Made by a program: the position numbers and the translations under genes
Shown: one piece after another, positions 8,163-39,603 of the stretch
How the letters are laid out: each line of letters opens with the position of its first letter
How positions within the stretch are numbered: the stretch's first letter is position 1
Virus record (IMG/VR): IMGVR_UViG_3300028840_007609
DNA: 64,000 bases
From: a virus
Reading direction: 5' to 3' (one strand)
The notes under the pieces: model-generated
The model's database searches: none
Seen by the model: the letters and a program-made list of their open reading frames with translations, nothing else
Told to the model about the DNA's origin: nothing

Positions 8163-8268
8163 CAACCAGCCATTGCCGTAAGAGCCAAGTGATGGTCGAA
8201 ACATTGGCCCAATGGCTGGTTAATCCAACCACAATCAAAACAAACTCTATGAAAGTGAGGTACATACT

Positions 8269-8616
8269 ATGTATAATTCCATCAAAAGAATTGCAACAGC
8301 AGTCGCAATTGTGGCTTTAATTATGGCCTTAATGGCTCCCGTAATAGCTCTGGGAGCCGATTCGATCATAAACTCGAAGATCAGCAACATGGTCGAAAAA
8401 GTCGACAAAAACGGTAATCCCTACGTCCGGTTCATAATCACCGAACAGCGCAAGCTGGGTGGCGTGAAGTACAAAACCGGAGTGCCTGTAATGGCGTTCA
8501 GAGAACACGCCCAAAAAGCACAGACATACAAGATCGGCGACAATCTTAAAGCCGTCGTGAAGTATCGGGAATATCAAGGCCGCGAAAGCTACACAATCAT
8601 GGCCTTCATTGAGTAA
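8269..8616 (+). CDS. secreted hypothetical protein (115 aa)
   Basis: Signal-peptide-like N-terminus; GAGG SD. Confidence 0.6.
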   Translation: MYNSIKRIATAVAIVALIMALMAPVIALGADSIINSKISNMVEKVDKNGNPYVRFIITEQRKLGGVKYKTGVPVMAFREHAQKAQTYKIGDNLKAVVKYREYQGRESYTIMAFIE

Positions 8617-8646
8617 CATCCGGCAGTAACCCCCTGCCGCACCAAG

Positions 8647-8684
8647 CCTCGTAAGCACCGTCCAGCTTACGGGGCTTTTTTTTA
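8647..8684 (+). terminator. rho-independent terminator
   Basis: CCTCGTAAGC / GCTTACGGGG stem (one mismatch), 8-nt loop, then a T-run. Confidence 0.75.
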
Positions 8685-8953
8685 CTAAAGCCAGCGTTCC
8701 GCCGCTGGACCACGGCCAACGTCCCGTTGGATCGGCCAACGTCCCGCCGTTGGATCACGGCTCAGATTTGAAATCTGAGAGCAACTTTTTGCTTCGCCCG
8801 CATCAAGCAGCCTGGTTGCAATCTGGCAAGAAAAGATACCTGCCAAAAATACAGCACACTACGCTGTGACCAATTTTTGGCATAAAGGTACGCTCCTAAA
8901 TCAAAGGCAAGCAATAGGATTTTATCAATTTTAGCCCTTTGATTTACTCACTG

Positions 8954-9418
8954 TCCACACACACGGGCCACATTCGGCACGACTTGATTCTCAATCAGAC
9001 ATTCCCATTGTCCTGAGTAGCCTTCAGGCCACCAGACTAAGGGTTTTTGGAGAACAAAACCCAAGTCTTAAAAGTCCTACACGGACTTTTTGGCCTTCAG
9101 GCTGAACACACGGGGGAACGCTGAACTTAGATTCAGAAAATAAATGCTAAAAAATCGGTACGATAGGACTTCGATTTTTTAAAGATCACATTTATTTTCT
9201 CGAATCAGTTCAGCGTTGGCACCGGGCTTCCCGCCAAACAACGGCGGGACCCTCCCTCGGCGGCGCTTGACAGAACCAAGCGCACGCCGTGCCATAGGCT
9301 GGACCGTATCCCTGAATCTCGCCCAGCACATAAACAGCGAACGAACGATAGGACGTGTCCGCATGTGCTGAACAAGCTTCAGTCTTTTGGTGCTATTGAA
9401 GTGACCCGTGTGAGTGGA
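8954..9418 (+). ncRNA. candidate large structured RNA or origin-like element
   Basis: No credible ORF. A 13/14 long-range helix pairs 8954-8967 with 9405-9418. Many nested hairpins, including a 36-bp interrupted hairpin at 9117-9217. Confidence 0.35.
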
Positions 9419-9457
9419 TATGGCTTTATTTTATAATATATATGAAAGGAGCGTATT

Positions 9458-9682
9458 ATGAAAAAGGAATTAAAAGTGAAATTGCATAAAATTGTGTACA
9501 GTAAGAAATATCAGAAATTCGGTGCTGAGTATCACGATCGGCACTGTGTTGTCTTGAGACGTGCAACTGGCAGACCGAAAAATGTTCTTGTTCAATTGCG
9601 GGGTGGAGAGCTGGCTGTTGTTCCATCTGGCAATATTAGGTTTACTGGAAAATATCTTGTCTTGGGGCTTGATAGAATATAA
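9458..9682 (+). CDS. hypothetical protein (74 aa)
   Basis: AAAGGAG SD; ORF track. Confidence 0.6.
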   Translation: MKKELKVKLHKIVYSKKYQKFGAEYHDRHCVVLRRATGRPKNVLVQLRGGELAVVPSGNIRFTGKYLVLGLDRI

Positions 9683-9701
9683 TTGAAAGGAGAACGTAAT
9701 C

Positions 9702-9800
9702 ATGAAAAAAGACCCGATTGACATCGTTATCGAGTTGGCAGTATGTGCCCTGCTGTTGTGTTGGGGCTTCACAGTTATTTATCATGCACTGGGGATTTAA
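9702..9800 (+). CDS. small membrane protein (32 aa)
   Basis: Hand-translated as MKKDPIDIVIELAVCALLLCWGFTVIYHALGI; AAAGGAG SD. Confidence 0.45.
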   Translation: MKKDPIDIVIELAVCALLLCWGFTVIYHALGI

Positions 9801-9823
9801 TAAAAAATAAGGGGGTTACAAAA

Positions 9824-11167
9824 ATGCAAACACTTACAGACAAACTTTGGAGCAGGATAGTGGGCGGGGCGCTCGATCGAATTGCCAGATGTTTCAGGTC
9901 GGCGTTGCGGGAAACATCGGCCGAGATCGAGCAGAAAATCCGCAATCAACACATCCGGCCGTCAAACTACGCATCATGGACGGAATTTTCGAAGTTTTCA
10001 GACGTACCGGATAAGATAGCCGTACGAAGAAACTTCGGGAGCAAAGTCGAAGTCGACATCTTCGACAGCACATTGCAACGTAATCGCGACCTGCCGGACA
10101 ATATAGGCTACGTTGCAATGGGGCTCGAAGAACGCAAAAACGAGCACCTTGATTATAATAAATTTTCTTCGCGGCTATTCAGCGAAGACTGCATCCAGTA
10201 CGGCGGCAGATTGAACGTTATATTCCAACGGGCCAAGATAGACATGCAGCCAGCGTTATTAAACAGGGCTGAATGGCTGGCAAAACAACTTAATTGCGAG
10301 ATGTGCGACGCACTCACTCTGGCAGAATGCTTCAAGCGTCTTGGCCTTGATCGAAATATGGGCCTGAAAGCAATCTTCGGCTACTACGACCAGACAAACG
10401 CCGCATGGCGCAACGGCCTGCAGAAAATAGGCGTTGAAGCAGGCCGAAAATACGCAGAGTATTTTGAAAATCTGGTCAAGGAACTGGATGAAGGGCCGGA
10501 TCTCATTCAGGAACTCCGCGAACACTTCCTGAGCACATCTTTTGACATGATCGAGTCGCGTGATTGGATGTTGCAGTATCATGTCGAAGAGCCAAGCGCA
10601 TTTGAGCAAATGTACTGGATCGAAGAAATGGTACGACAGGAATTTGAAGCACTGCCGCCAAAAGAAGTCGACGATTACGAAGATAGTTATATATCACACA
10701 TCGGCGACGCTAAAAAAGAACAGCCAAGCTTCGATCTATTTGGAGCTTTTCCGTTAAAAACAGACGCCGACGGCCTGCCACACGAAATAATATCAGAGAT
10801 AAATCAGGCCAGCGTCGAAAAAATAAAAAAGATCCAGCAACGCATGTTTAACCAGAATACGTATTGGGGCATCAGAAAGGCACAATACGGCTGGATGACC
10901 CAGTTGCAAAAAGTGGAGTTCTGGAGCTTTGTCAATGCGCGTAAGGCAAAGCTTGCAGACGAAGCCAAAAAGACATTGACACCCAAGTCAATGGAAGTAA
11001 TAGAAATAATGAAAACGCTTGGCTCTTTTAAGCAAAAAAAGGCATTTATTGCGTCATATTGCGCAGGTAATAGCTTTAATCTATACGGCAAGCAGATCAG
11101 AAACCCGAAACCGTCAAACGAAGAAGCGTTTGGAGTATGGGCGGAATTCAGACGTATAACACAGTAA
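9824..11167 (+). CDS. hypothetical protein (447 aa)
   Basis: ORF 9743..11167; ATG at 9824 preceded by AAGGGGG. Confidence 0.75.
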   Translation: MQTLTDKLWSRIVGGALDRIARCFRSALRETSAEIEQKIRNQHIRPSNYASWTEFSKFSDVPDKIAVRRNFGSKVEVDIFDSTLQRNRDLPDNIGYVAMGLEERKNEHLDYNKFSSRLFSEDCIQYGGRLNVIFQRAKIDMQPALLNRAEWLAKQLNCEMCDALTLAECFKRLGLDRNMGLKAIFGYYDQTNAAWRNGLQKIGVEAGRKYAEYFENLVKELDEGPDLIQELREHFLSTSFDMIESRDWMLQYHVEEPSAFEQMYWIEEMVRQEFEALPPKEVDDYEDSYISHIGDAKKEQPSFDLFGAFPLKTDADGLPHEIISEINQASVEKIKKIQQRMFNQNTYWGIRKAQYGWMTQLQKVEFWSFVNARKAKLADEAKKTLTPKSMEVIEIMKTLGSFKQKKAFIASYCAGNSFNLYGKQIRNPKPSNEEAFGVWAEFRRITQ

Positions 11168-11233
11168 ATAATGGCAAAATACCGTCTACTGTGCCATTTT
11201 GGCATAGGTCATTTTGGCACAGTAGGTAAAAAT

Positions 11234-11827
11234 GAGTCTGAGTCTACTTATATACGAAAAAAAAAATAAGCAAAAAAATTTTTCGTGACTCACGACTCAA
11301 ATCTGTAAGTGCACATAATTGTTATATATACGGATAAAAACACTCGACTCAAAAGTAGACTCAAGACTCATATAGAAGACTCTCACAACTCTGTAAACTT
11401 TTCGATACACTACGCAATATCTGGTAGGTATAAAAAAACTTAACATATAATAGTGTGGTTTTTAAGTTGAAAAGTGAGTCAAAAATGAGTCGAGTTTGAA
11501 AAAGTGTAGGATTATACGGCAGTTTGCGATTATTATACAGTATTACAGGTGGTTACAAGCTGTGTGCGAGTGCGAATGTGCAGTTTTTGGAAGGGTAATG
11601 AGTCGAGTTTTTGACTCGGAGAGACTCCAAAGCGGCTTTTCGCACCGATTCAGAGCCCTTGAATCACGTATAACAGCCCAATATATCAGCAGATAACGCG
11701 CGCAAGAAAAATGGTAATCGTGCAAATTGCGAAAGTTACAAAAATGTAAGAAATTTAGCAAAAAACACCACAATGTGGTACTTTTTGGGCTAAAATCGCA
11801 ACGTCTGATAATTTTTGAGTCGAGTTT
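11234..11827. repeat. iteron-like cluster (16 GAGTC/GACTC pentamers; 3 x TGAGTCGAGTTT)
   Basis: Counted by eye. The 12-mers lie at 11486, 11599 and 11816. No credible ORF in the region. Confidence 0.6.
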
Positions 11828-11970
11828 GGCGTTTTTTTTGGCGGCTTCAATCTAACGCAGTGAGAATCACGGTCTACAAGAGTTAGGCACACCTAACTTT
11901 AACCCTCCAACGTCTGATAATAAATATTATTGTCAACTTTTTGGGTCTTTTTCGAAGATGTAAAAAAAAA

Positions 11971-12320
11971 CTTGCGCGTCCCGCTCGCTGCGCTCGCGGC
12001 GGCCCCCCTCCGAGCTCGCTATACGCTCGGCCCTTCGGGCTGGGCTTCGCCCACTCTCCGGTCTGCCTGACGCCTGACGCGCTCCGCTTGCCAATTTCCG
12101 GCAGGAGCCGGTTATTCCGGCGGGTGCCGGGCAGGGGGAAGAACCCCCGAGTTCCGGCCGCCTCCGGACTTATCCATAGACCTGCCGCGCCGTCGCAAGG
12201 GATACACGTCCTGCGGCCGCCTGCACTCCCCGGTTCTTCCCCCTGCACCCCCATCTCCCCCGCCCTTGCCCAAAAGCTTATATTGCGCATGGATGCGCTC
12301 CGCTTGCCGCGAGCAAGGTT
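11971..12320. other. GC-rich structured non-coding island
   Basis: Abrupt GC-rich block in an AT-rich genome. A 14-bp helix pairs 12132-12145 with 12232-12245. The 14-bp direct repeat GCGCTCCGCTTGCC occurs at 12079 and 12295. Confidence 0.45.
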
Positions 12321-12662
12321 CTTATATCAATAATTGCAGCAATATAGCACCTGGTGCGCCTGGCCAAGGACAGGGCACCTCTTTCACCATGCGGGTAAAC
12401 TAACTACTGTGAAAGGATATTACCCCCCGCCCCAATTCTCAGCACTCCAACCACTTTCAACCAACACCAGCACTCTCAACACCTCAGTCCACCCATTCTC
12501 AGCTCACTCTGCTCCAGCTCACTCTGCATCACTCCGCTCTGCAAACTACCCCCCCGCGTTTTTACGACCACTTGCCTTTTGCTAAAAAAAAATTAAAAAA
12601 TTTTCAAAATGATTTTAAATTATTTTAAAAAGCCTTTTACAGTGTTGCAAAAGGAGCAGTAA

Positions 12663-16619: not shown

Positions 16620-16800
16620 TTTTTAATTAGGCTATCATTATCGTTAATCTAATCATTAGAACGGTTTTTGTTTAAGGCGTCACAATAAAAACCTGACGTA
16701 ACAAAAACCAATCATTGTTGTTATCTTAACGCCTAACAAAATCAGGCATTTGTAATTTAATTATTAAATGGCGAATATTATTCGGGCTTGCCCGAAACTA

Positions 16801-17009
16801 ACTGGAAATCCGAGTTCGACTCTCGGTTGCCCCTCCATTATGGAGGCGCTGCTATTTTTAACGGCAAATTGGATTAGTCATCCATTGGCTTGAAAAAAAC
16901 AGAAAAGCGATGTTGGGGGGATAAGGACAAAACTCTGACAGCTTAGCAGCGCGTTTCTAAGCAGCGCCTCCATAATTGCGGGGCAATCGTCCAACGGTAG
17001 GACGCTGGT
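16801..17009 (+). ncRNA. circularly permuted tRNA-like element (T-arm half upstream of D-arm half)
   Basis: 16801-16837 carries the anticodon-stem 3' strand, T arm, acceptor 3' strand, U and CCA. 16980-17009 carries the acceptor 5' strand (7/7 complementary), D arm and anticodon-stem 5' strand. A 17-bp perfect hairpin lies between them. Confidence 0.55.
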
Positions 17010-17075
17010 TTTAGTCATCTTAAATAAATTTGCGCATTTAAAATAAATTGCAGCCAAATCCATTTTGTTTCCGAT

Positions 17076-17151
17076 TTAAATATAGCTCAAATGGTAGAGC
17101 ATTGGGCTTATAACCCAAAGGTCGCGGGTTCGATTCCCGCTATTTAATCCA
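17076..17151 (+). tRNA. tRNA-Ile (anticodon UAU), CCA encoded
   Basis: Hand-folded cloverleaf. Acceptor TTAAATA/TATTTAA, D arm GCTC-AAATGGTA-GAGC, anticodon arm TTGGG-CTTATAA-CCCAA, T arm GCGGG-TTCGATT-CCCGC. Confidence 0.8.
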
Positions 17152-25523: not shown

Positions 25524-25586
25524 GAAAGCTTGGTTACCGACTAAGAAAGCTTGGTCGCTGACTAAGAAAGCTTGGTCACTGACTAA
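25524..25586. repeat. 3 x 21-bp tandem repeat (GAAAGCTTGGTNNCNGACTAA)
   Basis: Read directly from the sequence. Each unit carries a TAG in the portal frame on the minus strand. Confidence 0.9.
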
Positions 25587-27106
25587 GCTTGATCAGCGGG
25601 ACGAACCTTAGCACCGCCTCCGGTTTCGTTGTGAAAATTATCTGCCAAAAGCGGTATCTCTTCAGGAGTTTTGCTATTAGTTTCGTTTTCAATCTTCTGG
25701 CGTTCATCATCAGTTAAATCAGGCAGCATCATTGAAGCCACCTTCATCTGCAGTTTAACCCTGAAAGTTTTGCTGGCCATATTACGCATAGACGTAAACG
25801 CATTATCAAGCGCAACAGCAAGGTCGTCAATTGAAAACTCTTTACTCCTTGAAATTTTTATTTTTTGAAACAGCTCTGTTTTATTTTGCCATTTAAGCCA
25901 CAGCCTTATAATCTGATATTCAGCTTCAACCATATTATCTGATTTTTTGCTGAGCACACTAAACAGCTGCCTAAAATTATATCTTAATGCCAACCCGCTC
26001 TGGGCCTCATTGGATGTCCGCTGCCCGGCCACCCCAGAAAGATGTGCAATTCTAAATATTTCGTTTTGTTTTCTGTCAATCCAGCTTAAAATAGCCTCTA
26101 TCGGTTCTGCTATTTCTGTCGGCATCCAGTCAGGCTTTGCGGCGTCTCCATAGTTTGGATCGAACTGATGCACTGCCCTTACACCAACTTCCTCTTGTTT
26201 ATCGTCATCGCCTTCTTCCGGAGAGCTGCCGTCTTCCATGGGGACCCTTAACATCGGAAATCCAGCCATTTTGATAACTTCTTCGCCGCATGACAGGTTT
26301 CTAACAATACTGGAAACAATTCTGCTTATATCGACAATGTCGCTTACCCCAAGATATGAATGTTTCACACGTTTTACATTGGGCATCCATATAAATGGAA
26401 TTTCTCCAATTGGATTGGTGCTTTCTCCACGCAATTTAGGTGTGTTGGTCTTTTTGTCAAGCTCCCAATGTTCCCATTTGTTAGGCCACCAAAGCAAATA
26501 AGATCCGTCCTCCTCGCGAAGTTTTAAATAAGTAAGAATTGGCCGGTGCGTTCTCGAATTACGTTCAATTTTCCAGTCGTAAATATTCGGTAAGGAGTAC
26601 AAGGCAACATATGGATATGCCCCGCTATCTATTTCATCTTGAACATTCTTAAAAATTCCACCAGGTTTGTTAACCAAAATTCCAATAGATCCTGATGCTG
26701 AAGACAATTTTTGCGTTTCGTCAATTAAATTAACAAAATCGGAATTCATCAAATCAGCATCCTTCGAAAACATTTTCCACTGTTCATCATCTTCGAGCCC
26801 ACCAAGTTGACGACTGGTATCAGTTTCGGTCAGATAATAATTAAACAAATCAACAATTGTTTTTGCATAATTAAATACGAAACCGTCGTTTTGCCTCTCA
26901 GCCCAATTCTTTAATGACTCCTTCGTGCTATATCTGTGGAGGCAATATTCAATAAATGGCCTTCCACCGTTATATGCAAGTTCGTAAAGCTGCCATTCTT
27001 CAATGTTGACTTTATACAACGCATGCTTTTCTTCAAGCTCTTCTTTCCTCATCCCTACCTTTTTTATTTCAGGCTTTGACACTTTGGTTTTATTTTTTTT
27101 GCTCAT
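25583..27106 (-). CDS. portal protein
   Basis: About 507 aa, immediately downstream of terL with ATGA coupling. Call rests on position and size. Ends in TAG. Confidence 0.7.
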   Translation of the reverse strand: MSKKNKTKVSKPEIKKVGMRKEELEEKHALYKVNIEEWQLYELAYNGGRPFIEYCLHRYSTKESLKNWAERQNDGFVFNYAKTIVDLFNYYLTETDTSRQLGGLEDDEQWKMFSKDADLMNSDFVNLIDETQKLSSASGSIGILVNKPGGIFKNVQDEIDSGAYPYVALYSLPNIYDWKIERNSRTHRPILTYLKLREEDGSYLLWWPNKWEHWELDKKTNTPKLRGESTNPIGEIPFIWMPNVKRVKHSYLGVSDIVDISRIVSSIVRNLSCGEEVIKMAGFPMLRVPMEDGSSPEEGDDDKQEEVGVRAVHQFDPNYGDAAKPDWMPTEIAEPIEAILSWIDRKQNEIFRIAHLSGVAGQRTSNEAQSGLALRYNFRQLFSVLSKKSDNMVEAEYQIIRLWLKWQNKTELFQKIKISRSKEFSIDDLAVALDNAFTSMRNMASKTFRVKLQMKVASMMLPDLTDDERQKIENETNSKTPEEIPLLADNFHNETGGGAKVRPADQA

Positions 27107-38691: not shown

Positions 38692-39603
38692 ATGGCAGAA
38701 GAACAGCAATACGGCAATGGATACGAAACAGTCTGGACTCCCAGCGGATGGCTTGTAACTACTGATAACACAGTATCCGCTGACGATTACTGGGAGTTTG
38801 CGGATAGTTTTGCATTGCCGGCAACTGCTGTAAGCCTGTCAGGTACTGGTACAATTATTACTGTTACGTCAGGACCGTCGCTATCTGTCAACCGTTCGTT
38901 TTCAGGATCAGGCTCACTCACAACAATCACATCGTCTGTTATTTTAGAAATTTTAAGACAGCTTTCAGCTACAGGCGCAATATCAACGACAACATCAGCC
39001 CCTGAGCTTACTCTAAATATACAGCTGTCAGGAACCGGTGCTATTGTTACGGTTACATCTTCGGCAATTCTGGAAATACTAAGACAGCTGTCAGGCACTG
39101 GCAGTATAATAACATCCACTTCTATTCCCGGGTTTCCGATAAAAAGACCACTTTCAGCCACCGGTACAGTAGTTTCGCTAACTTCAAATCCAATTTTAGA
39201 GATTCTGAGACAGCTGTCCGGAACAGGAAATATAATAACATCGACTTCGAGCCCGGCCTTGGCTATTTTGAAACAGCTGGCAGCAGCCGGTGCAATGTCA
39301 TCTTCAACATCATCGGTAATCTTATCGATATTAAAGCAATTGTCAGCAACAGGTTCTATTTTAAGCAGCACTTCCAATATAATTCTTGAAATCTTAAGGC
39401 AACTGTCAGGAACAGGAAATATTTTAACAACAACGTCTGATTTCAACCTTTTAACAACGATGCTCGGACTGGTTGAAGACACGGCGATAACACCACAAAC
39501 TACATATGCAATCAGTTCGAGCACTGGTGAATTGACAATTGTTGCACAATCAGGCTACAGTATAACGATCGCAACACCAGAAAAAACCATATCGGAGGCA
39601 TAA
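38692..39603 (+). CDS. virion protein with 10 tandem 21-aa repeats
   Basis: LSGTGxIxTxTSxxILEILRQ periodicity across residues 49-254. Confidence 0.75.
   Translation: MAEEQQYGNGYETVWTPSGWLVTTDNTVSADDYWEFADSFALPATAVSLSGTGTIITVTSGPSLSVNRSFSGSGSLTTITSSVILEILRQLSATGAISTTTSAPELTLNIQLSGTGAIVTVTSSAILEILRQLSGTGSIITSTSIPGFPIKRPLSATGTVVSLTSNPILEILRQLSGTGNIITSTSSPALAILKQLAAAGAMSSSTSSVILSILKQLSATGSILSSTSNIILEILRQLSGTGNILTTTSDFNLLTTMLGLVEDTAITPQTTYAISSSTGELTIVAQSGYSITIATPEKTISEA
38836..39453 (+). repeat. about 10 x 63-bp coding tandem repeat
   Basis: Derived from the protein periodicity. The antisense strand is also open because of the repeat. Confidence 0.85.

Follow-up and report, generated by a model that had tools for sequence, protein, structure and literature searches.

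Repetitive extragenic palindromic (REP) sequences and bacterial interspersed mosaic elements (BIMEs) are intergenic, high-copy sequences that often occur in tandem, in both orientations, after stop codons or terminators. When examining an untranslated spacer of some 770 nucleotides (nt) in the genome of an uncultivated phage (IMG/VR record IMGVR_UViG_3300028840_007609; positions 8690 to 9457 of the 64-kb stretch that was analysed as a whole and is called the window below), we observed that this hairpin-saturated region is closest to REP/BIME clusters and shares most of their testable features: the palindromes are GC-rich and imperfect, three copies follow each other in tandem straight after a terminator, and the corresponding unit in bacteria of the order Victivallales is multi-copy, intergenic and present in both orientations. 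The differences are that the copies in the window are phage-borne, that the unit is a module of about 70 nt with three hairpins and not a single REP, that a GTAG-like 5' tetranucleotide is not evident beside the hairpin in the Victivallales copies seen, that no REP-associated tyrosine transposase (RAYT) is linked to it, and that the family is uncharacterised and known here from two Victivallales assemblies. Tentatively, and with a confidence that falls a little short of an even chance, we read the spacer as a composite of independent palindromic units at an operon boundary, to which one conserved hairpin, denoted H hereafter (9117 to 9217), is added. The parts of this composite are tandem repeats of the apparent host type, the conserved phage hairpin and several unique hairpins without detectable relatives.

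Other described elements resemble the spacer, or H, in part. The early mRNA of phage T7 has RNase III processing hairpins between its genes. Like such a site, H has at least two helical turns, an asymmetric internal loop, an intergenic position and a conserved upper stem and loop; unlike it, H is longer (38 bp) and lies amid many hairpins, which are absent at the T7 sites. With the large phage-associated RNAs GOLLD and ROOL, the spacer shares the size (0.5 to 0.8 kb), the lack of an open reading frame (ORF), the phage context and heavy predicted structure, but its helices are long and perfect whereas theirs are many and short, with conserved junctions, and the block in the window is not conserved among the relatives of the phage. 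In the untranslated iss region of phage T5, the order of elements is conserved across T5-like phages and includes eight ordered DnaA boxes and long direct repeats (bioRxiv 10.1101/866236). Our spacer likewise is a stretch on the kilobase scale that is untranslated, rich in inverted repeats and palindromes and located between early gene blocks of a siphovirus; however, it contains neither DnaA boxes nor long direct repeats, and a single hairpin in it is conserved. The likeness to the T5 untranslated regions is one of appearance only.

Tandem copies of a Victivallales-type repeat

The left end of the spacer, 8691 to 8791, is made up of a REP/BIME-like repeat known from Victivallales, which is present here in tandem copies. 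All the hairpins concerned are read on the plus strand. The first is a variant of the repeat-unit hairpin, CCAGCG TTCCGC CGCTGG (8691 to 8708; direct-repeat families D1 and D2); it is followed by a short-loop form, CCAACG TCC CGTTGG, that is, CCAACGTCCCGTTGG (8716 to 8730), which replaces hairpin 1 of the full unit, and by the hairpin CCAACG TCCCGC CGTTGG, that is, CCAACGTCCCGCCGTTGG (8736 to 8753). Thus, three hairpin copies are clustered in tandem within 63 nt (8691 to 8753), in one shared orientation, and a direct repeat, GGCCAACGTCCCG, starts at 8714 and again at 8734. A full three-hairpin copy of the Victivallales repeat spans 8719 to 8791 and comprises a hairpin, CCAACG TCCCGC CGTTGG, ATCACG and the third hairpin, CTCAGATTT G AAATCTGAG (8761 to 8779).

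Among one genome each of 185,579 species, the 18-mer CCAACGTCCCGCCGTTGG has 31 matches, of which 26 are isolated, as chance predicts, and five fall in two Victivallales assemblies, CAXXSX01 and JAFGXT01 (loci L061, L071, L080, L068 and L086). In these bacteria, the 18-mer is embedded in a module that consists of TTTCGGCTTYGCCGA, CCAACG TCCCGC CGTTGG, ATCRCG and then a variable hairpin, occurs in both orientations, varies among copies by compensatory changes and has ordinary chromosomal genes as neighbours, namely, those for LpxB, EamA, CNNM/CorC, AraC-type and TPR proteins. In CAXXSX01, two further hairpins, one long and AT-rich and the other AAATCGC...GCGATTT, lengthen the module to about 150 nt in total. 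A covariance model of the three-hairpin module, R2, detects approximately 10 copies (26 to 90 bits) in 37 kb at the five loci. In the window, R2 matches 8719 to 8791 over its full length on the plus strand with 27.5 bits under default filters and 34 bits with filters off, as opposed to 6 bits on the minus strand, and the variant hairpin at 8691 scores 16.6 bits against the central hairpin of the model. In the 26 control loci that contain the identical 18-mer, the seed alone accounts for 20.5 bits and the best extension reaches 23.3 bits. No Rfam family covers the Victivallales module. The label 'REP-like' that the earlier note, made from the letters of the window alone, had given to the first hairpins was therefore apt, as the repeat that they match is intergenic and present in many copies in Victivallales chromosomes.

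The presence of a Victivallales-type repeat in a phage genome is a clue to the host and suggests that this phage infects Victivallales (Lentisphaerota). If this is correct, the repeat provides a sequence-based pointer to the host of an uncultivated phage lineage that has no relatives in the isolate or IMG/VR collections.

A hairpin shared with distant relatives

The 447-aa product of a gene downstream of the spacer has, among 5.8 billion proteins, homologues in three other clusters only, at 41 to 42% identity, with none added by a profile search. The contigs that encode these homologues, L004, L005 and L006, share with the window a conserved gene order: SSB, a gene for a 108- to 115-aa protein, a gap and the gene for the 405- to 447-aa protein. 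The gap itself, 841 nt in the window, measures 211 nt in L004, 496 nt in L005 and 262 nt in L006, and the sequences are unrelated to that of the window; the gap of L005 contains a different structured sequence (z = -4.7/-3.4). Hence the 770-nt block is not a conserved unit of the lineage. A blastn search with 8200 to 9900 and with the H-containing block of L004 (below) against 50,697 phage records yielded no match, IMG/VR scans with the flanking proteins and with the repeat pattern were empty, and nothing scored in a protein search with the joined stop-free translations of the noncoding blocks and the 74-aa protein encoded next to the spacer, a query designed to pick up homologous DNA on which genes had been called spuriously.

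The only part of the spacer with homologues in related phages is H, which is 72% identical to L004 12905-12985 (E = 2e-8). A metagenome scan with a pattern of the H core returned 49 loci, among which L039 was the sole genuine homologue; pattern scans of IMG/VR for H gave no match. The earlier note had described an interrupted hairpin of 10+5+12+9 bp at 9117 to 9217; the hairpin is present there, with 11+5+12+10 bp. It includes an asymmetric internal loop, C versus AAGATCA, which is conserved: in the three copies of H, the upper stem and this loop (...AAATGCTRAAAAAT...CGATTTTTYAAAGATCACATT) are nearly invariant whereas the lower stems diverge, with three compensatory pairs. A covariance model of H, R1, finds one copy per genome in the window, L004 and L039, and none elsewhere.

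In L004, H resides at another locus than in the window, downstream of the large gene, in a hairpin-saturated block with z = -12.3/-12.4. L004 (12330 to 13265) and L039 (440 to 1320) each have a noncoding block of their own, about 0.9 kb long and saturated with hairpins (z about -12). Between these two genomes, the H-containing noncoding core is 78% identical, as against 70% for the adjacent DUF4326 gene, with 7 (plus strand) or 10 (minus strand) compensatory pairs, and an (AT)n plus T-run motif occurs on either side of the conserved right-hand part, which is about 300 nt long. Given that the core is more similar than the adjacent gene and contains compensatory pairs, H appears to be under selection, along with the core of about 300 nt in the L004/L039 sub-lineage. 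Conceivably, H might serve for processing of the RNase III type or be bound by a protein, with the conserved internal loop and upper stem as the recognised parts. We also considered H as a host-derived unit and rejected this possibility: the long AT-rich hairpins beside the Victivallales repeat resemble it by eye, but MAFFT gave no alignment and R1 scored just 12 to 18 bits.

In all three genomes, H lies 1 to 2 kb from an array of TGAGTC sites, upstream of the array in the window and downstream of it in L004 and L039. In the window, 11 of the 21 TGAGTC copies fall within 11233 to 11821 and none in the spacer; L004 and L039 have equivalent arrays. The ORF-free region that holds the dense TGAGTC/GAGTCGAGTTT array directly follows the 447-aa gene (11170 to 11900; in L004, 11336 to 11800; in L039, 1 to 70). 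This array is a candidate for an iteron origin or an operator array.

Folding of the spacer

Over 8680 to 9457 (778 nt), the predicted folding energy is -294.5 kcal/mol on the plus strand (z = -8.0) and -327.6 kcal/mol on the minus strand (z = -11.0), relative to dinucleotide shuffles. A 200-nt scan of the whole window, in which z had a mean of -0.5 and a standard deviation of 1.5, showed a sole run of consecutive segments with z below -4, at 8500 to 9400, and a finer 150-nt sliding scan of 6.5 to 13.5 kb agreed with it. Every hairpin motif that had been listed in the earlier note was found at its position, including an extra copy of ACACACGGG at 9106 to 9114, and the structure is beyond chance. 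The long-range helix of 13/14 pairs that it had proposed is present as well, but extends further, to 16/18 at 8954-8971/9401-9418 and to 24 bp in the minimum-energy fold; its pair probability is about 1 on both strands, and complementarity as strong was seen in none of 60 dinucleotide shuffles. A second long-range pair, 8741-8752/9239-9250, was absent from that list and is a perfect 12/12; we rejected it as a structural helix, its pair probability being 0, and it represents a partial inverted copy of the repeat unit.

The helices of the spacer are mostly perfect Watson-Crick and long (10 to 12 bp), and no GNRA or UNCG tetraloops are found among the hairpin loops as read from the sequence. Long perfect helices without tetraloops are typical of REPs, of terminators and of palindromes of recent origin. 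No further copy of any unit of the spacer occurs elsewhere in the 64-kb window.

Between the repeat and H, the spacer contains a hairpin TGCCAAAAAT/ATTTTTGGCA that encloses ACAGC/GCTGT (8841 to 8882), the inner hairpin of which, together with a T-run, has a terminator-like score on both strands, and a hairpin TAAATCAAAGG/CCTTTGATTTA (8897 to 8946; 11 bp with a 28-nt loop; inner AAATCAAAGG/CCTTTGATTT, 8898 to 8945). What follows is a core of 476 nt (8948 to 9423), closed by the long-range helix, the 5' arm of which spans 8948 to 8975 and the 3' arm 9398 to 9423. Inside it are a three-way junction (9018 to 9104; z = -5.7/-7.0 for the scanned segment containing it), in which the outer helix AGCCTTCAGGCCA/TGGCCTTCAGGCT encloses hairpins at 9034 to 9068 and 9070 to 9090, the latter being AAAAGTCC/GGACTTTT, and, beyond H, three more hairpins: CCCGCC/GGCGGG (9226 to 9252), which contains the partial inverted copy (9239 to 9250) of the repeat-unit core, the GC-rich GGCGGCGCTTG/CAAGCGCACGCC (9258 to 9290), and one with 20-nt arms that are paired at 16/20 positions by Watson-Crick rules (9312 to 9382), in which C.A accounts for three of the four mismatches on the plus strand; these three would be G.U on the minus strand.

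In the window, L004, L039 and L005, the minus-strand minimum-energy folds allow about double the number of G.U pairs of the plus-strand folds, and the consensus fold of L004 and L039 reaches -82.8 kcal/mol on the minus strand versus -59.8 on the plus strand. The plus strand is, however, rich in A+C, and a strict count of isolated mismatches in helices gives A.C 15, G.T 11 and other 26; the ratio of G.U to A.C was dropped as evidence of the strand.

Competing explanations

If the spacer is indeed a composite, the palindromic units would have entered or stayed because they are tolerated at an operon boundary that is not translated. Once transcribed, whether by read-through or from promoters on the flanks, they might act in a REP-like manner, as hairpins near 3' ends that pause or stop RNA polymerase and block 3'-5' exonucleases, and could insulate the upstream replication-gene operon from the next operon; alternatively, the units may be selfish or neutral DNA. 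H would be a separate cis-element under selection, recognised via its internal loop and upper stem. Should this hold, REP/BIME-like elements, or their hairpin function, pass into phage genomes and gather at operon boundaries, and extreme folding z values in phage spacers may reflect stacked palindromes rather than one ornate RNA; H itself is a compact conserved cis-element that is amenable to testing. Several points weigh on the other side. The 476-nt core, with its closing helix of 16/18, three-way junction and nested helices, resembles a folded single-stranded molecule, and in L004 and L039, the excess of the identity of the H core over that of the gene (78% versus 70%) and the 7 to 10 compensatory pairs suggest a selected unit of about 300 nt. 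The host-type repeat is demonstrated for only some 100 of the 770 nt, and the margin of the R2 match in the window over the controls, both at default settings, is a modest 4 to 7 bits or so. Moreover, phage genomes rarely retain 0.8 kb of useless DNA.

The main competing explanation is a new large structured RNA, in which 8948 to 9423, or perhaps 8690 to 9423, would form one transcript of about 0.5 to 0.75 kb with H as its conserved functional centre. We regard this as unlikely, and the same applies to the broader proposition that the H core (8948 to 9423 in the window, approximately 12800 to 13235 in L004 and 900 to 1300 in L039) is an undescribed class of RNA of 0.3 to 0.5 kb, closed by a long-range helix, constrained beyond the neighbouring protein genes and able to move from one intergenic site to another in a rare lineage with probable Victivallales hosts, which we consider doubtful. 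The near-certain pairing of the closing helix, beyond all shuffles, the three-way junction and nested helices, and z values of -8 to -12 in the window and L004 are compatible with such an RNA, but the helices are unusually long and perfect, no tetraloop motifs were read in them, and part of the block is the host repeat. H is kept with compensatory changes even though the proteins of these genomes are only 41 to 48% identical, a short helix encloses H and the hairpin that follows it in both lineages, and the L004 and L039 cores, which would be diverged homologues of that in the window, are more conserved between them than the neighbouring gene; nevertheless, between the window and L004 or L039, nothing aligns beyond H, and three sequences are too few for covariation statistics. 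The larger number of possible G.U pairs on the minus strand is offset by the strict mismatch count given above, and a promoter and terminator scan found no pair that would bracket the region on either strand. The core containing H may give rise to a structured transcript; if the large-RNA explanation is true, H marks a new large phage RNA.

Membership in known RNA families was examined with Rfam 15. At gathering thresholds, the whole window yielded only a tRNA (17076 to 17151), at E<=10 the region 8500 to 9600 yielded only noise of 13 to 19 bits (for example, miRNA and snoRNA models), and L004 to L006 gave no match, including any riboswitch, attenuator or leader model. The suggestion of a GOLLD- or ROOL-type RNA in the earlier note is thus rejected, as no covariance model of these families matches even at E<=10 and the sole tRNA lies 7.6 kb away, so that there is no adjacency to a tRNA either. 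Otherwise its interpretation is borne out in part: the region has no convincing gene and is saturated with non-random hairpins, but the only known relatives do not share the 770 nt as a conserved whole. Three further candidates were considered and set aside: a retron msr-msd RNA (the flanking proteins contain no reverse transcriptase according to Pfam or PHROG, and the 447-aa protein has no YxDD), a CsrB/RsmZ-type sponge (about 11 GGA and 12 TCC per 770 nt equal the random expectation; GGA does occur in the minus-strand loops of the repeat hairpins) and permuted RNase P-like motifs, which are not supported in the region.

A role at the DNA level is distinctly improbable in our estimate. In this scenario, H, perhaps with its neighbours, would provide hairpins for single-strand initiation or primosome loading, which the primase-polymerase and helicases of the phage would use and which would operate with the TGAGTC array. 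A precedent is the oriV of IncQ plasmids (RSF1010), where the priming hairpins ssiA and ssiB lie beside iterons and the replicon encodes its own primase, helicase and SSB. The phage likewise has a conserved hairpin close to arrayed, repeated and putatively protein-binding sites; it differs in that the distance (1 to 2 kb) and the side of H relative to the array vary, in the lack of sequence similarity, and in that the array is an origin candidate only. The spacer lies amid replication genes, with an SSB-like gene directly upstream and helicases and a primase-polymerase at 53 to 63 kb of a contig whose starting point differs among assemblies; this position, the proximity of H to the array in all three phages and the AT-richness of H (GC 0.32), a palindrome that can fold on both strands, agree with the scenario. 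The region itself, however, contains no iterons, its direct repeats being copies of the repeat unit only, no DnaA box (TTWTNCACA with at most one mismatch, 8690 to 9456) and no AT-rich unwinding block; the cumulative GC skew has no turning point there, and long-range helices and multi-branch folds are atypical of duplex origins. The replication origin that the earlier note had deemed plausible at this site is therefore not favoured, the TGAGTC array being 2 kb away.

Also quite improbable, slightly more so than a role in replication, is a structured plus-strand 5' leader or riboregulator of the operon for the 74-aa, 32-aa and 447-aa proteins that controls read-through or processing. The structured block stops 15 to 50 nt short of the Shine-Dalgarno (SD) sequence of the next plus-strand gene in the window as well as in L004 and L039, with (AT)n/TATAAT at its edge, and a second copy of (AT)n plus T-run, which precedes the core in L004 and L039, fits tandem promoters. 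Yet the promoter scan finds none past the terminator that ends at 8677, the known models of riboswitches, attenuators and leaders give no match, and the downstream genes differ, encoding a 74-aa protein in the window, a 135-aa protein in L004 and a DUF4326 protein in L039, so there is no constant regulated target. Least probable of all, and in our view very unlikely, is a non-autonomous mobile element akin to miniature inverted-repeat transposable elements, bounded at 8954 and 9418 by terminal inverted repeats of 18 nt. The inverted termini TCCACACACACGGGCCAC/GTGACCCGTGTGAGTGGA do exist, the interior is GC-rich relative to the genome and the junction is variable among relatives. Against these stand the lack of a target-site duplication in the flanks as read from the sequence and of a second copy in the window or the fetched loci, and the fact that the centre of H is conserved while its outer stem varies; termini bound by a transposase would be expected to show the reverse.

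Genomic setting and minor observations

The genome is that of a metagenomic tailed phage with the hallmark genes for TerL, portal, tape measure, J-like tail fibre, two helicases and a primase-polymerase; its TerL is at most 37.5% identical to that of any deposited phage. The sequence recurs, with 100% identity, in one JGI contig and two Logan assemblies, so there is no population variation to exploit. Upstream of the spacer are the SSB-like gene and a gene for a 115-aa protein, the operon of which ends on the plus strand with an intrinsic terminator (8644 to 8677; a 13-bp stem, then a T-run) that forms the left bound of the spacer; analogous terminators are located 3' of the homologous gene in L004 and L006. 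Downstream are the ORFs for the 74-aa, 32-aa and 447-aa proteins. Searches of Pfam, PHROG and PDB gave no match to the 447-aa protein, and its AlphaFold model, with a pLDDT of 47.6, is unusable. Directly before the 74-aa gene, on the plus strand, lie TATAAT (9432 to 9437), an (AT)4 tract (9436 to 9443) and an AAGGAG SD sequence (9446 to 9451). Tracts of (AT)n with n of at least 4 number just four in 64 kb, and L004 and L039 have a like tract directly before the first gene past the structured block. The perfect TATAAT and the (AT)4 tract, with their equivalents in L004 and L039, mark the right bound as a promoter region. We infer that the spacer separates two transcription units of a siphovirus-type phage, from the terminator at 8644 to 8677 to the putative promoter at about 9432.

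That the region follows a terminator, as first noted from the letters alone, is thus borne out. By contrast, the claim that it is more GC-rich than its flanks does not hold: its GC content is 0.484, compared to 0.416 for the genome and 0.46 to 0.50 in the upstream flank, and the GC-rich part is confined to 9218 to 9400 (0.59). The same reading had found no ORF led by an SD sequence; there is indeed no convincing gene in the region, but one such ORF, of 26 codons, exists on the minus strand. This speculative candidate, MPKIGHSVVCCIFGRYLFLPDCNQAA (8803 to 8883), has an AGGAG SD sequence 9 nt before an ATG at 8883, the only ATG in the region with a strong SD sequence (the chance expectation is estimated at 0.1 to 0.2 per region), and a promoter-like TGGACA-18-TAAAAT upstream (8957 to 8928). 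It could be a gene for a small hydrophobic peptide or a product of chance.

Elsewhere in the genome and in L004, we observed what appear to be circularly permuted tRNA-like genes (window, 16780 to 17015; L004, 609 to 1207). In the window, a T-arm, 3' acceptor and CCA (...CCGAGTTCGACTCTCGG TTGCCCC T CCA, ending at 16838) are upstream of the 5' acceptor and D-arm, GGGGCAA TCGTCC AACGGTA GGACG (from 16979 on), which match the upstream 3' half, and the two halves are joined by a hairpin with 30-nt arms (z = -11.9). In L004, AAGCYTACATGC precedes each of three permuted tRNA-like units and a single normal tRNA; one of the permuted units is broken at 37/38, in the anticodon loop. ARAGORN and Rfam detect the normal tRNA only, and ARAGORN calls tRNAs on artificial joins of the 5' and 3' halves. 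A literature search found no case of permuted tRNA genes in bacteriophages.

A second noncoding island in the window, 11940 to 12560, has a GC content of 0.60 in this genome of 41.6% GC and contains an inverted repeat with 39-nt arms (12131 to 12246), a 14-nt direct repeat, GCGCTCCGCTTGCC, at about 12083 and 12296, and a tract of some 150 nt that is nearly free of G (12400 to 12560); gene callers place there an ORF of 135 aa, rich in Arg, Gly and Pro, that looks spurious. Three tandem 21-nt repeats, GAAAGCTTGGTYRCYGACTAAG, are present at 25524 to 25587, between a gene for a 493-aa HNH-type protein and the end of the minus-strand portal gene. Finally, repeats with a period of 63 nt (38833 to 39437; 4 to 7 copies, 65 to 76% identity) are part of a 303-aa ORF (38692 to 39603), the product of which is a protein of the structural module with 21-residue repeats.

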